Position numbers: made by a program. From an uncultured delta proteobacterium (GTDB lineage: Bacteria; Myxococcota_A; Polyangia; Polyangiales; B10-G4), in assembly GCA_963727445.1 (NCBI GenBank), contig CAVSGI010000009.1:1-64000 (forward strand): a DNA stretch of 64,000 bases, read 5' to 3'. This document shows, piece by piece, positions 18,001 to 21,000 of this stretch. Numbering within the stretch: the stretch's first letter is position 1; the number at the start of each line of letters is the position of its first letter.

Positions 18001-21000
18001 CGAGGGGTGGATTCGAACCACCATTCGCGGTTCCAAAGACCGCTGTCCTAACCATTAGACGACCCCGGAATGGAGTCCTCCATATAACACTCGCGCCGCC
18101 GGGCGCTAGGGTTAGTGCGCCGTCAAGGCGCGACCCATGCGCGTGGGCATGGCTTCGAGGGCCCGCTCCGCGATCTCCCGGATCGCGGGGGCCTCGTCCT
18201 CCGTCGCGGCGATGAGCGCTGCCTCGAAGGTCTGTACGCCTATCTTGGCCATGGCGTCCACGGCGTGGAATCGGATCTCGGCGTGCTCGGAGAGACGGTC
18301 CTGCTCGAGGCGTCGCGCGATCGCGTGGCGCAGGTCGTCGTTGGAGGTGTTTCGGTAGCGGGTGACGATGCGGGCGTAGGCGCCGCGCCCGGGGATCTCG
18401 TCATGGGCGTCGTCGTGAGTGACGGCCGTTGTGTCGTCGGTGCCGTCGTTCTTGCGCTTCTTCAGCGTGGGCAGGGGACGCGCCGGGACCGAGCTGCTGC
18501 GCCGCTTGCGCTCGGACTTCTTCACCTGCGCGTGGCGGATGACGCCCGAGCCTTCCTCGACCGCGTCGAGCTCGGCGACGTCGAGCTCCGGCAGGGCGCT
18601 CTCCTTGTGCTTCGCGACGCGCGCCTCATCGGCGGCTTCGCTCACCAGCTGCGTCACGCGCGCGGGCAGCGCCGCGCAGCTCGCCAGGATGCGCACCGTG
18701 GTCTTGTCGGTCTTGGCGCTCGAGCGATAGATCGAGATGTCCACGCTCGCGCCGTCGGTGTCGGCCTTCCACTGTTCGCGCAGCTGCTCGACCACGCGGA
18801 CCGGCGTGTCGGCCAGCGCCTTTTCGGGCACCTCCAAGACGATCTGGAGCGCAGAGACCGAAGCGGGATCGACGCCCGCGGCGAGCACCCAGCTGCTCAT
18901 GAGCGATTCGCTGATCGCATCCGAGACCTGCTCGGCGGTGAGGGAATCGATCTCCGTGGCGGCGAAGTTCAGAGTGCCTCCCGCGGTGAGAACGCGCGCG
19001 AGGCGCGATCCGTCGAGCGCGGTCACGGGCGTGAGATCGTCGCGCGCGACGAGCCGGTTGAGCGCGTCGAGGGGCTCCACGATCTTCTGATTGATCGTCT
19101 CGCGGTACTCGAGGAGCGGGACGTCGGCGTTCATGTCGGCCAGGCGCGCGTGGTCGACGAGGATCAGCCCGTCGAGCTCCGCCTTGGTCAACGCGTGCAC
19201 CGCGCGGACGGCGTTCACCTTCGTCTCCGCGGTCGCCCCCGCCGTGGGCAGGGTCGCGACCACCAGCACGCTCGCTTCGCAGTCGAGATTGCCGACCAGC
19301 TCCGCCACGGCCGACCCGGTGCCGCCGCCGAGGCCCGCCATCACGAGGACGATCGACGCATCGCGCGATTCGGAGCGCACGATGTCGGCGATGCGGCGCC
19401 CATTGTCGCGGATGTGCCGCGCACCGATGCTCGGATCGCCCGCCGCATCGTGTGCGTCGTCCGCCCCGATGAAGTGGCAGCGCTCCTTGGGGACGTGCTC
19501 TTGCGCGTCGGCTGCCCGTCTCGTGCTGTGGAAGGTCACGGCTCGGTAGCCGCGTCGGGCCATCTCGGCGGAGAGCCGTCCACCGGCTCCTCCCAATCCG
19601 ACGACCAGGATGTCGAGCGCGCAGTCGCGAAGCGCCATGTGCGAGTGTCCTTTCGCTGTGTAGGACAATGTGTGAGCAAGGAGCGATCCACGCCCCGCAT
19701 CCCGCGAAAATCGGCGCTTTCGCACTTCAGGTGGGAGCGGGGAGCGTTCCGTGCACCCGACCTTGGCGCGAGGCTCGCTCCGCCGACACGTCCTTCTGCC
19801 AGGCGAGTTGCCTCGAATCGAAGCAGGAGAATATTCTCCGGATGAGCTTCGAGACGTCACGCGGGACGCCTCAGAACCTCGTCGGAGCGTCGATGTTCGA
19901 GAAGATTCGCGCCGACATGCGCGCGTACGAGGAAGATGGCGGTTGGTACAAGAACCTCGGCTTCTACGTCGGGGCCACCTACCGCTTCGGCTACTGGGCT
20001 CACAAGCGCGAGTCCAAGCCCGCCCGCCTGGGCCTCGGCGCCATGCACCGCGTGATGGCGACGCCCTGGCGGCTCTTCCGCAACGTCTGGCTCCTCGCGC
20101 CGTGCGAGATCGGCCCCGGGCTGCGCATCGTCAATCCGCACAACGTCCTGGTTGCCCCCGACGCCAGCCTCGGCGCGAACTGCTCCCTCGATCACGCCGT
20201 GACGCTCGGGACCGGTCCGCTGCCTGGCGCACCCGCGGTGGGCAACGGCGTGGTGGTCTCTGCTGGCGCCAAAATCCTCGGGGGCGTACGCGTGGGAGAC
20301 GACGTCTTCGTAGGCGACAACGCCGTGGTCACCAAGGACGTGCCGAGCCACGTCTCCATCTCGGTCGCGACCCCTCGACAGGTGGCCCGGCCGGCACACG
20401 CTGTTGGGGAGTAGCGTCGGCCTTCAGCCGGCTTGCTTGCGCTCGATGAAGGCGGCGATCTGGGCGATCGAGTCGAGGTTGTCCGGGAGCATCTCCTCGT
20501 CTTCGACCGTGATGCCGAAGTCGTCCTCGATGAACGCGATCACCTCGAGCACGCCGGTCGAGTCGATGATGCCGAGCGTGAGTAGCGAGTCCTCTTCTTT
20601 GAGGTCCGCCGAAGCGGCCGCGTAGAAGTTGCTCGTGATGAATTCCCGGACCTTCTGCTTGGTATCCATGTCTCTGGTTTTCCTCAGCCGCTCTTCTTCT
20701 GGGCGAACGCCGCCCGGGGATTCCCATCGGCGTCGTTTTCGAATTCGACGGGCCCGTAGGCCTTGCTGCGCTTGAAGAGCAGCCCGAGCTGCCAATCTTG
20801 CCCGAGGCCGAATTCGAACATCAACCATCCATCGTCCTCGAGGTACGCAAGCGCGTCCTTGATGACGCGCTGATGGATGGCGATGCCGTAGGGCCCACCG
20901 TCGAACGCCTCACGAGGCTCCGAGTCGAGGAGCTCCTTGCGGTCGCCCTCGAGCTTTCCCGAGGAGATGTAGGGCGGGTTGCAGATGACGACGTCGATGG

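Follow-up and report, generated by a model that had tools for sequence, protein, structure and literature searches.

Bacterial relatives of tubulin described in the literature are FtsZ, BtubA/B, the FtsZ-like Tubulin_2 proteins and the TubZ/PhuZ proteins of mobile elements. The window, i.e. the whole stretch of DNA analysed here (64,000 nucleotides, positions 1 to 64,000 of contig CAVSGI010000009.1 of an uncultured member of the Polyangiales, assembly GCA_963727445.1), contains a tubulin-like gene that raises two questions: to which branch of the superfamily its product belongs, and what such a protein, ending in a HEAT-type module, does on a bacterial chromosome. Databases often label its relatives 'cell division GTPase FtsZ', and under this label the family has been hidden.

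The gene and its product

The gene (18112..19638, minus strand, like all features given below) encodes a TubZ-like protein of 508 amino acids, P0002. The gene is real and its coordinates, as given in an earlier note on this DNA, are right: the frame is intact and there are full-length relatives, two of which (85% and 80% identity) have the same start and end points. A putative Shine-Dalgarno-like AAAGGA (19648..19653) can be read 9 nt 5' of the ATG. A scan for sigma-70 promoters and terminators at the gene found none and is uninformative at this GC content (0.70 for the gene, with GC3 0.90, and about 0.69 for the genome).

P0002 exceeds the cut-off for Pfam Tubulin (45.4 bits, cut-off 33), stays below those for TubZ-like_C (22.5 bits, cut-off 26, which many relatives exceed) and HEAT_2 (20.3 bits, cut-off 27.7), and falls far below the equivalog cut-off for NCBIfam ftsZ (55.7 vs 295.2 bits); it has no match to Tubulin_2 at E 0.01, to Tubulin_C or to a PHROG. 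The structure model has a mean pLDDT of 87.1. The Rossmann-like GTPase domain (residues 8-200, 19039..19617), which gives the Pfam Tubulin match, is modelled mostly above 90. Its T1 loop GLGGAGG (19579..19599) has Gly17 where 138 of the 139 members with an intact T7 loop have Gln, at the position of c-st TubZ Q12 and TubZ-Bt Q32, and in the T2 region His37 (19528..19530) replaces an Asn that is again present in 138 of 139. The T4 signature GGGTGS (residues 104-109, 19312..19329) is retained. Asp162 is followed by His163 (19150..19155), where the alignment has Asn in 139 of 139 intact members and in 33 of 33 TubZ, CetZ and FtsZ references. The T7 loop reads D209-G-S-R212 (19003..19014), with Arg in place of the second catalytic acid; D209 and R212 align with D197/E200 of c-st TubZ, D266/D269 of TubZ-Bt and D235/E238 of RepX.

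The C-terminal (activation) domain of the tubulin fold (residues 201-325, 18664..19038), seen in the model and in the sub-cut-off TubZ-like_C match, is followed by a long helix (residues 326-347, 18598..18663) that the model and the structural alignment equate with TubZ helix H11, and in which E338 and K345 are invariant among 45 aligned members. A short conserved hydrophobic/acidic tail motif (residues 348-361, 18556..18597), with L352 invariant and L354 present in at least 90% of the aligned members, is a candidate contact to the next subunit, by analogy with the TubZ C-tail (PMC5322520). The disordered linker (residues 362-412, 18403..18555; pLDDT < 50) is rich in Pro, Ala and Ser across the family and there ranges from 34 to 488 aa. 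It leads to a five-helix HEAT-type module (residues 418-495, 18154..18387) recognized from the model, with blocks of pLDDT 86-98, and from fold matches. Folded alone, the module reaches a pLDDT of 93.7; its matches are generic HEAT/ARM proteins, the best of which (Z 11.1) stays under the threshold of caution that the tool sets for helical bundles, and in the ESM Atlas it finds HEAT_2 clusters at 0.95. The genome has no other strong copy: this one scores 110 bits and the next best 21. The predicted HEAT fold is generic, and by itself it indicates no function.

Relationship to TubZ

The earlier finding that TubZ/RepX heads both profile and fold searches was reproduced: B. cereus TubZ/RepX ranked first in a profile search over tubulin-fold chains (E 1.8e-28), and Foldseek matched the P0002 model to TubZ/RepX with E 1.9e-20 and TM 0.77. 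VIA aligned residues 2-347 with residues 10-384 of B. cereus TubZ (4ei7; Z 37.5, rmsd 2.8 A over 341 residues), followed by CetZ2 (33.6), TubZ-Bt (3m8k, 33.1), a second CetZ match (31.1), c-st TubZ (4xcq, 30.8) and FtsZ (26.1), while BtubA/B and eukaryote-type tubulins scored 24-26, 12 below TubZ.

In trees built without PhuZ, BtubA/B and eukaryotic tubulins, the family forms its own clade (99/97), which groups with plasmid and phage TubZ (100/96) to the exclusion of CetZ and FtsZ; the four CetZ rows form a clade of their own (100/99) outside this group. Together with the ftsZ score, the tree bears out a branch of the superfamily apart from FtsZ. Of the earlier description 'TubZ/CetZ-like', only the first half holds, since the tree joins the family with TubZ and excludes CetZ. 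A sister group in the tree, so far uncharacterised, includes a large viral contig (L082); a glycosyltransferase fusion (P0188) was left out of the family because it grouped with such viral-like rows. The conclusion that these proteins are a TubZ-related but separate, chromosomal, non-FtsZ family of the tubulin superfamily is therefore supported.

Distribution and descent

The gene is present in single copy in 28 of 151 genomes of the order, including 15 of 15 in one family, and is absent among the searched genomes of several large families (0/23, 0/23, 0/23 and 0/9). It was not found in the sole congener genome (86% complete), and it is retained in genomes of 2.7-4.0 Mb (G007, G015, G028, G038). 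The patchy distribution indicates that the gene is dispensable.

Confining the family to Polyangiales, as had been done, proved too narrow, and the statement that all named homologues are Myxococcota does not hold: among the matches listed in scans of genome contigs and metagenomes, where all numbers are minimum values, there are members from other orders, from Fibrobacterota and from unnamed metagenome lineages, and the family clade holds the Fibrobacterota and metagenome members, some with HEAT and others with a different fused domain. The named family matches seen are all metagenome-assembled.

The linker and C-terminal HEAT module stand as a feature of the family but are not universal. The family HEAT profile is matched by 136 of 154 core-complete members; the other 18 comprise apparently truncated proteins, two with a different HEAT repeat and some with no HEAT. 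Outer members carry a PilM/FtsA-like, ParA/MinD, HD-GYP or membrane-anchored NTF2 domain in its place, a replacement that fits a swappable cargo slot. The YkuD match of P0212 is below cut-off (20.3 vs 23.4), which makes an L,D-transpeptidase no more than a lead.

Inheritance is mostly vertical and selection purifying: in 20 genomes from four host families the gene tree agrees with that of FtsZ, with one exception, one transfer is visible (family f7 nested within f3), and dN/dS is below 1 in all three domains over 10 computable pairs (0.03-0.84).

Genomic context

The gene is chromosomal, as had been stated: its contig (C9, 938,598 bp) carries tRNAs and housekeeping genes and has host-like composition. 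It is also confirmed to lie outside the dcw cluster, ftsA-ftsZ being on another contig (C8). Coexistence with FtsZ is well founded across the order, where FtsZ is above its cut-off in 145 of 151 genomes; in the window assembly, which has many frameshifts, ftsZ is broken into frameshifted pieces, as is the adjoining ftsA, so that for this genome the claim rests on a broken-looking read. As to the reported lack of fixed neighbours, none is conserved across host families, and therefore no partner is named, but within host families the neighbours are fixed.

A tRNA-Gln(TTG) on the same strand (17995..18069), a neighbour outside the system, lies 42 nt downstream of the gene. As an integration site it was rejected, because only 1 of 27 related loci has any tRNA near the gene (about 5 kb away) and the composition is host-like. 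That the gene is a mobile-element remnant or an assembly artefact with no host role is very improbable. The adjoining tRNA, the frameshift-rich assembly and the visible transfer might be quoted for it, but the frame is intact, the composition is that of the genome, two independent relatives at 80-85% have the same odd residues, the gene sits on the 5' side of the tRNA, and mostly vertical descent under purifying selection largely refutes it.

Because the characterised sister-group members all move DNA (PMC5322520), and the uncharacterised one holds the viral contig mentioned above, the family might still segregate or position DNA (the chromosome, a secondary replicon or a resident phage) through a TubR-like adaptor encoded elsewhere. 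The surroundings of the gene make this quite unlikely. In 14 of 14 reference TubZ loci a gene of 93-137 aa lies directly upstream, with weak HTH matches in 6 of the 12 scanned; in the family loci, this TubR slot holds a small ORF in 21 of 83 cases and no HTH-family match, and in the window no small co-oriented ORF is present upstream of the gene. A genome-wide tblastn search with eight TubR-slot proteins, queries that barely find each other, found nothing in the genome or in 93 loci. Between 17900 and 20500 only four two-copy repeats were found, all within the coding region, whereas two control TubZ loci have three-copy AT-rich direct-repeat arrays. The plasmid search gave no match above 34% identity and the phage search none for an intact member, and the neighbours of the family loci are housekeeping genes (rsfS, suf, valS-mraZ and leuA-like genes, among others). 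The earlier observation that no partition or phage genes accompany the gene thus also covers TubR genes, iteron arrays and a mobile context, none of which was found. Nor was a vWA or GTPase operon found among the scanned neighbours; Tubulin_2 gave a single sub-cut-off match among the 30 closest representatives scanned.

Loss of catalytic-site residues

The T7 motif D-x-x-D/E is kept by 139 of 154 core-complete members, and 15 of 15 TubZ and phage references have D or E at the second acid; of the 139, T1 Gln occurs in 138, T2 Asn in 138 and T6 Asn in all. P0002 belongs to a clade of 13 proteins (the R clade) in which the second T7 acid, the T1 Gln and the T2 Asn are each lost 13/13, and T4 is altered in some. 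The T7 loop had been reported as diverged in this copy: the acid is indeed missing (DGSR), but this is no private quirk, as it marks the whole subclade. Assembly error as the source of the odd residues was ruled out, because R212 and H37 are common to P0002, P0003 and P0004.

In the R clade the HEAT module evolves at about half the rate of the GTPase domain (tree-length ratio 0.52; 0.43-0.66 in 20 bootstraps), the opposite of most intact clades: the ratio is 1.35-2.68 in six of eight, the other two being shallow clades with low ratios (0.76, 0.60) and very wide ranges. With several nucleotide-site residues lost and constraint moved to HEAT, P0002 represents the active family poorly. Judging from its residues, it is probably a GTPase-dead copy.

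Whether such a copy would still polymerise can be judged from mutants of related proteins. The catalytic-loop mutant of c-st TubZ at E200, with which R212 aligns, keeps assembly and holds 80% GTP (PMC5322520), and K254 at the T7 catalytic position of beta-tubulin blocks hydrolysis (10.64898/2026.02.15.705738); the equivalent change in S. aureus FtsZ, D213N, suppresses assembly altogether (PMC8936486), so that P0002 may fail to polymerise. Dimer predictions for residues 1-365 scored 0.01, 0.43 and 0.18, with the mark at 0.42, and count neither for nor against. P0002 could be a non-polymerising pseudo-enzyme that acts as a monomeric adaptor or modulates FtsZ, its tubulin domain a mere folded body or slowly decaying. 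The three losses and the altered T4 would fit this, as would a dN/dS of 0.84 for the GTPase domain in one deep R-clade pair, where saturation is likely and decay is compatible. We nevertheless regard it as unlikely, considering that T107 and N183 are retained in 13 of 13, that the H11 and tail residues are also kept, and that dN/dS of the tubulin domain is 0.27-0.34 in two close R pairs. The modulator version can also point to the second FtsZ paralogue found in all five carriers of the gene in one host family (f22); however, no second FtsZ was found in the window genome, and in two f22 genomes the paralogue occurs in the absence of the gene. A functional link to this paralogue was rejected, having no support beyond co-occurrence among kin. 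Likewise rejected was pairing with an active paralogue as a heterodimer, as no second TubZ-like gene was found in this genome (85.6% complete).

The HEAT module might regulate its own tubulin domain, capping, nucleating or bundling it from its tether in a manner loosely reminiscent of TOG domains, rather than serve as a cargo adaptor. No partner gene is conserved beside the gene, eukaryotic tubulin-binding TOG domains are HEAT arrays, TOG domains are among the fold matches (Z 7.7-8.5), and Arg abounds in the first half of the R-clade modules, the tail motif being acidic. We give this reading a small chance: the TOG matches do not rise above unrelated helical repeats, outer members carry enzymes in the place of HEAT, and an outside partner fits better with R-clade HEAT modules that are conserved while the tubulin domain evolves about twice as fast.

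Proposed function

The explanation that we favour, with moderate confidence, is a TubZ-like filament that has been domesticated and brings its own protein adaptor, the window copy probably being a pseudo-GTPase scaffold or oligomer that retains the HEAT interaction. A TubZ-related tubulin would have been domesticated on bacterial chromosomes and would have lost its DNA-partition partners. Intact members would polymerise head to tail, driven by GTP binding, the T7 D-x-x-D/E loop presumably completing the GTPase site of the next subunit, and helix H11 and the tail motif would grip the neighbouring subunit as in TubZ. The linker would hold out the HEAT module, which may bind a protein partner and would thus be the counterpart in cis of what TubR-tubC is in trans for TubZ. 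The filament might thereby place a protein cargo; one with a role at the cell pole or envelope is most plausible, although which cargo it is can only be guessed. The window copy would belong to a derived clade that can no longer complete the hydrolysis site; since the residues for splitting GTP are lost in its branch, it is probably a static scaffold or non-dynamic oligomer, not a moving filament, whose retained job would be the HEAT interaction.

A broader and distinctly more tentative proposal is a third, chromosomal tubulin cytoskeleton in several poorly cultured bacterial lineages, with filaments of the TubZ type whose cargo slot is modular (HEAT, PilM-like actin fold, ParA/MinD, HD-GYP or a membrane-anchored wall enzyme) and which position proteins, not DNA. 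One myxobacterial branch would then be a natural non-hydrolysing filament through the same exchange of an acid for a basic residue in T7 that defines beta-tubulin. As the family clade is sister to plasmid TubZ and not nested in it, the family could even be the cellular stock of the mobile TubZs.

With a chromosomal, mostly vertical TubZ-like family that has its adaptor fused to it, myxobacteria and other lineages would possess a further cytoskeletal system. The family is also an experiment set up by nature, with an intact-site majority and a clade that lacks the catalytic acid but holds HEAT fixed, and a comparison of proteins from the two bears on whether a tubulin-family filament can serve the cell without GTP turnover. 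A family of chromosomal tubulin relatives beside normal FtsZ with a tethered protein-binding domain appears undescribed: literature searches, largely of journals free of subscription, found no paper on it.

Comparison with known systems

TubZ/RepX of the type III plasmid and phage partition systems (B. cereus, B. thuringiensis, phage c-st) gives the best fold match of P0002 and shares with the family helix H11 and the tail, the T7 D-x-x-D/E of intact members and the same side of the tree. The family differs in its 15-21% identity and separate clade, in being chromosomal, single-copy and largely vertical with no TubR gene or tubC-like array, and in a long linker that ends in a folded HEAT module; P0002 itself, unlike TubZ, has no acid equivalent to E200/D269. 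With FtsZ it shares the Tubulin/FtsZ GTPase domain and the GGGTG loop, but the family is a separate clade and the canonical ftsZ lies elsewhere, adjoining ftsA.

FtsZl1/FtsZl2 (Tubulin_2) and the GAP1-N2 conflict systems are likewise tubulin relatives on bacterial chromosomes that bear additional domains at the C-terminus (PMC2875224, PMC7159879); P0002, unlike FtsZl1/FtsZl2, has neither a Tubulin_2 match nor a vWA/GTPase operon among its scanned neighbours. Like beta-tubulin, whose K254 makes a natural non-hydrolysing T7 loop, it has a basic residue (R212) at the catalytic position, a resemblance that is presumably convergent; beta-tubulin, however, has its alpha partner, and the window genome no second TubZ-like gene that could be found. 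TOG domains, which bind tubulin, are arrays of about six HEAT repeats; the P0002 module has only five helices, and its TOG matches lie amid unrelated repeats.

CetZ, the archaeal cell-shape tubulin, described as archaea-specific (PMC9856176), falls outside the clade that the family forms with TubZ, and no H11-linker-HEAT extension was seen in the CetZ matches. Like the family, however, it is a chromosomal, non-division tubulin beside FtsZ with fold matches to P0002 (Z 33.6 and 31.1), and it is a good analogy for a role in cell shape or polarity.

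P0002 gene and predicted fold

P0002, the TubZ-like protein of the window, is encoded on the minus strand (18112-19638) by an open 508-aa frame, with a ribosome-binding motif in the sequence 9 nt upstream and the GC and GC3 of the genome. It exceeds the Pfam cut-off for Tubulin (45.4 vs 33) and stays slightly below those for TubZ-like_C (22.5 vs 26) and HEAT_2 (20.3 vs 27.7); against the ftsZ equivalog model it scores 55.7 bits, the cut-off being 295.2. In the AlphaFold2 prediction (alignment of 45 rows, mean pLDDT 87.1), the tubulin core runs up to residue 347 and is closed by a long helix (326-347); beyond it, residues 362-412 are disordered, and residues 418-495 form the five helices of the HEAT module.

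FtsZs topped the list in the single-sequence search of solved structures. Bacillus cereus TubZ/RepX was the first tubulin fold by profile (E 1.8e-28) and by Foldseek (E 1.9e-20), and ranked first by VIA (Z 37.5, rmsd 2.8 Å, 341 residues), followed by CetZ2 (33.6), TubZ-Bt (33.1) and c-st TubZ (30.8) and, lower, by FtsZ (26.1), BtubA (25.6) and PhuZ (22-23). Among predicted viral structures, the top match (E 1.5e-24, 20% identity) was a protein from uncultured Caudovirales.

Phylogeny and distribution

Two trees, one quick (129 rows) and one built with care under a mixture model (56 chosen rows), gave results that agree. In the latter, where five TubZ rows have long branches, 32 family rows formed one clade (99/97), which grouped (100/96) with eight plasmid/phage TubZ rows and seven uncharacterised rows; CetZ (100/99) and FtsZ (100/99) fell apart from this group. 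Because of this placement, the family is to be regarded as TubZ-related, yet it was not found nested in TubZ.

The family profile detected a single copy in at least 28 of the 151 genomes of the order, a floor set by a strict first look, and FtsZ was over cut-off in 145 of the same set (unpublished genome G122 is counted in both tallies). Carriers made up 15/15 genomes of host family f3, 3/3 of f8, 1/1 of f15, 3/10 of f7 and 5/23 of f22; the same profile found none among the genomes searched of f9, f16 and f17 (0/23 each) and f11 (0/9), nor was the family found in the sole congener of the window's genome (86% complete). It also occurred in five genomes from two families of other orders (201 genomes of the class), in one genome of another order (301 of the phylum) and, within the phylum to which a Fibrobacteres record belongs, in 3 of 101 genomes. 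The protein search returned 146 matches with E ≤1e-15 (8000 scored candidates), and the cluster search 57 clusters with E ≤1e-30 (1.84 billion representatives). With an intact member, i.e. one keeping the second T7 acid, three plasmid records matched at 23-34% identity, and no matching phage records were found.

Over 20 genomes, the gene tree matched the FtsZ tree on f8, f22 and genus-level groups; unlike the FtsZ tree, it nested f7 within f3, a sign of one transfer. The dN/dS was below 1 in every domain where dS was computable (10 of 12 pairs), figures that are rough given GC and divergence depth. It is very improbable that the P0002 gene, with its open frame, is a remnant or an artefact.

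Genomic context

The P0002 gene lies on a contig of 938,598 bp, with tRNA-Gln 42 nt downstream and, on the other flank, a divergent hexapeptide-repeat transferase found by ORF scan; a GMC oxidoreductase, an AMP-binding enzyme and an acyl carrier are nearby (21 window ORFs scanned). At 23126-26118 (-), a glutamine amidotransferase domain and an NAD-synthase-like ORF stand in separate frames amid AMP-binding/acyl-carrier genes, forming a small biosynthetic cluster that frameshifts have probably split. Eight clustered tRNA calls occupy 32125-35272, one of them (35199-35272) of undetermined anticodon. The genome's ftsA and ftsZ, on a different contig (C8, about 511000-513300, outside the window), are interrupted by several frameshifts, most likely assembly indels; this suggests an indel-rich assembly and caution over absent or broken genes there.

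All-against-all comparison of 28 loci (81 chosen ORFs scanned) showed common neighbours only inside single host families: epimerase, patatin and deformylase in f3, M16 peptidase in f22. Metagenome loci of distant members (58 chosen ORFs) had the housekeeping neighbours rsfS, suf operon, valS with mraZ-mraW-PBP, panC and folP-like. In five of the outer-member loci (L139, L141, L142, L150, L183) the gene follows rsfS by 3-42 nt, apparently in one operon; the order LytR_C-rsfS-tubulin occurs in three scanned loci, with rimP-nusA downstream in L139. Fibrobacterota-type members come after sufU, where the suf operon ends (L039, L149, L158, L223). In a single instance (L182:5950-7347), a HEAT-tailed outer member is flanked by co-oriented valS and mraZ-mraW-PBP, directly preceding the dcw cluster.

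Reference TubZ loci with sufficient upstream sequence all (14/14) had a co-oriented gene of 93-137 aa directly upstream, with weak HTH matches in 6 of the 12 scanned. A small upstream ORF was present in 21 of 83 family loci (some duplicated): five RsfS, five SufU-type, one weak unrelated match and ten without a family, none of the 21 matching an HTH family. At the P0002 gene, neither such an ORF nor a nearby iteron-like array was found; two control TubZ loci do show arrays. The P0002 locus is not a partition cassette. That this TubZ relative positions DNA through an adaptor encoded at a distance is improbable.

Degenerate catalytic site

Position 212 (P0002 numbering) is D or E in 139 of 154 core-complete members, and these intact proteins retain D209 and Asn163 (139/139 each) and the T1 Gln and T2 Asn (138/139 each). 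Two otherwise intact proteins deviate there (one Asn, one lone Ser). The degenerate group (P0002-P0014, 13/154) has 12 Arg and one Ser; T1 Gln and T2 Asn are absent throughout, Asn163 is mostly lost, D209 persists in 6/13, and T107 and N183 are kept in 13/13. Its representatives form one clade nested among intact members (98 in the quick tree, 100/100 in the mixture-model tree). Among the order's 28 carriers, this type occurs in the window's genome and five f22 genomes (five Arg, one Gln at 212); the two named proteins of this type bear a Sandaracinaceae label.

R212 aligns with c-st TubZ E200, TubZ-Bt D269 and RepX E238. The c-st TubZ mutant E200A assembles but holds 80% GTP (PMC5322520), the D213N mutant of Staphylococcus aureus FtsZ fails to assemble (PMC8936486), and beta-tubulin K254, at the same T7 position, prevents hydrolysis (10.64898/2026.02.15.705738). 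By analogy, P0002 is thus likely to have lost GTP hydrolysis, and the chances that it would polymerise are about even. That P0002 is an adaptor without polymerisation is unlikely.

In other orders of the class, members with an acidic tail and no HEAT (L217-L221, L185, P0187/P0195) have varied T7 loops, several lacking the second acid, which may mean that the catalytic residue was lost a second time, independently. Seven f22 genomes (G066, G035, G134, G022, G093, G059, G087) have a second FtsZ paralogue (L131-L137), shorter and above the ftsZ cut-off; its NLDFAD loop is intact and, in six of seven, RRN(A/G)LVML stands near the C-terminus; five of the seven carry the degenerate TubZ-like gene.

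HEAT module and tail slot

Of 78 pairs among the 14 proteins carrying Arg or Ser at 212, 72 were more alike in HEAT than in the GTPase domain, as were 178 of 3160 intact pairs, the pairs being non-independent. With fixed topologies, the ratio of HEAT to GTPase tree length came to 0.52 for the 13 degenerate proteins (20 bootstraps, 0.43-0.66). Six intact clades had ratios of 1.35-2.68; for two further intact clades, both shallow, they were 0.76 and 0.60, the spread being too large for interpretation. HEAT and GTPase identities were 98% and 78% in G035/G066, and 89% and 75% in G022/G093, with tubulin-domain dN/dS of 0.27-0.34 in these pairs. In the degenerate clade constraint has moved onto the HEAT module, selection on the tubulin domains of these pairs being relaxed, not neutral. 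We consider it unlikely that the module regulates its own tubulin core, the less conserved part here.

The family's own HEAT profile matched 136 of 154 members, and a HEAT_2 repeat of ordinary type was over cut-off in outer members P0151, P0160, L138 and L182; folded in isolation, the module is a generic HEAT hairpin array. Class-level members end in an acidic unstructured tail, and some outer members have no added tail. The slot also holds PilM/FtsA-like (P0174), HD-GYP (P0194) and ParA/MinD-like (P0232) domains, apparent fusions from one cluster each, or a hydrophobic stretch ahead of a Cds6-type NTF2 domain (P0180, P0206, P0212); it is modular. P0222 groups with the last three (membrane-anchored Cds6 NTF2, possible L,D-transpeptidase), and the T7 loops of the fusions P0232 and P0194 are altered too. 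An uncharacterised sister group (L082:4788-6200, L188, P0189/P0191/P0201/P0208/P0210), whose members are extended at the N-terminus and end in a basic tail, was found on a viral contig of 302 kb as well as next to nucleotide-sugar genes, and is possibly a tubulin of large phages.

Proposed function and comparison with known tubulins

What we say of filaments and cargo is inferred; the fold, the tree position, the genomic context, the loss of motifs and the shift in rate were computed. The joint reading that we favour, if only somewhat, is that intact members would form GTP-driven TubZ-type filaments that position protein cargo, offering a protein-binding module where TubZ uses TubR-tubC (centromere-binding protein and iteron array), and that P0002 would be a hydrolysis-deficient scaffold retained for its HEAT contact.

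No description of the family was found in the literature searched; the supplements of PMC9871819 and of the Asgard tubulin preprint may contain the sequences. In PMC9871819, Dehalococcoidia and Firmicutes are mentioned as having sparse CetZ-like groups, and no mention of Myxococc-, Polyang- or Sorangium was found; the families described in PMC2875224, PMC7159879 and PMC9856176 differ from that of P0002. By the membership tests of FtsZ, CetZ and Tubulin_2, P0002 falls outside each. It is structurally like TubZ, but departs from it in TubR, tubC and location, and this copy also in the catalytic acid.
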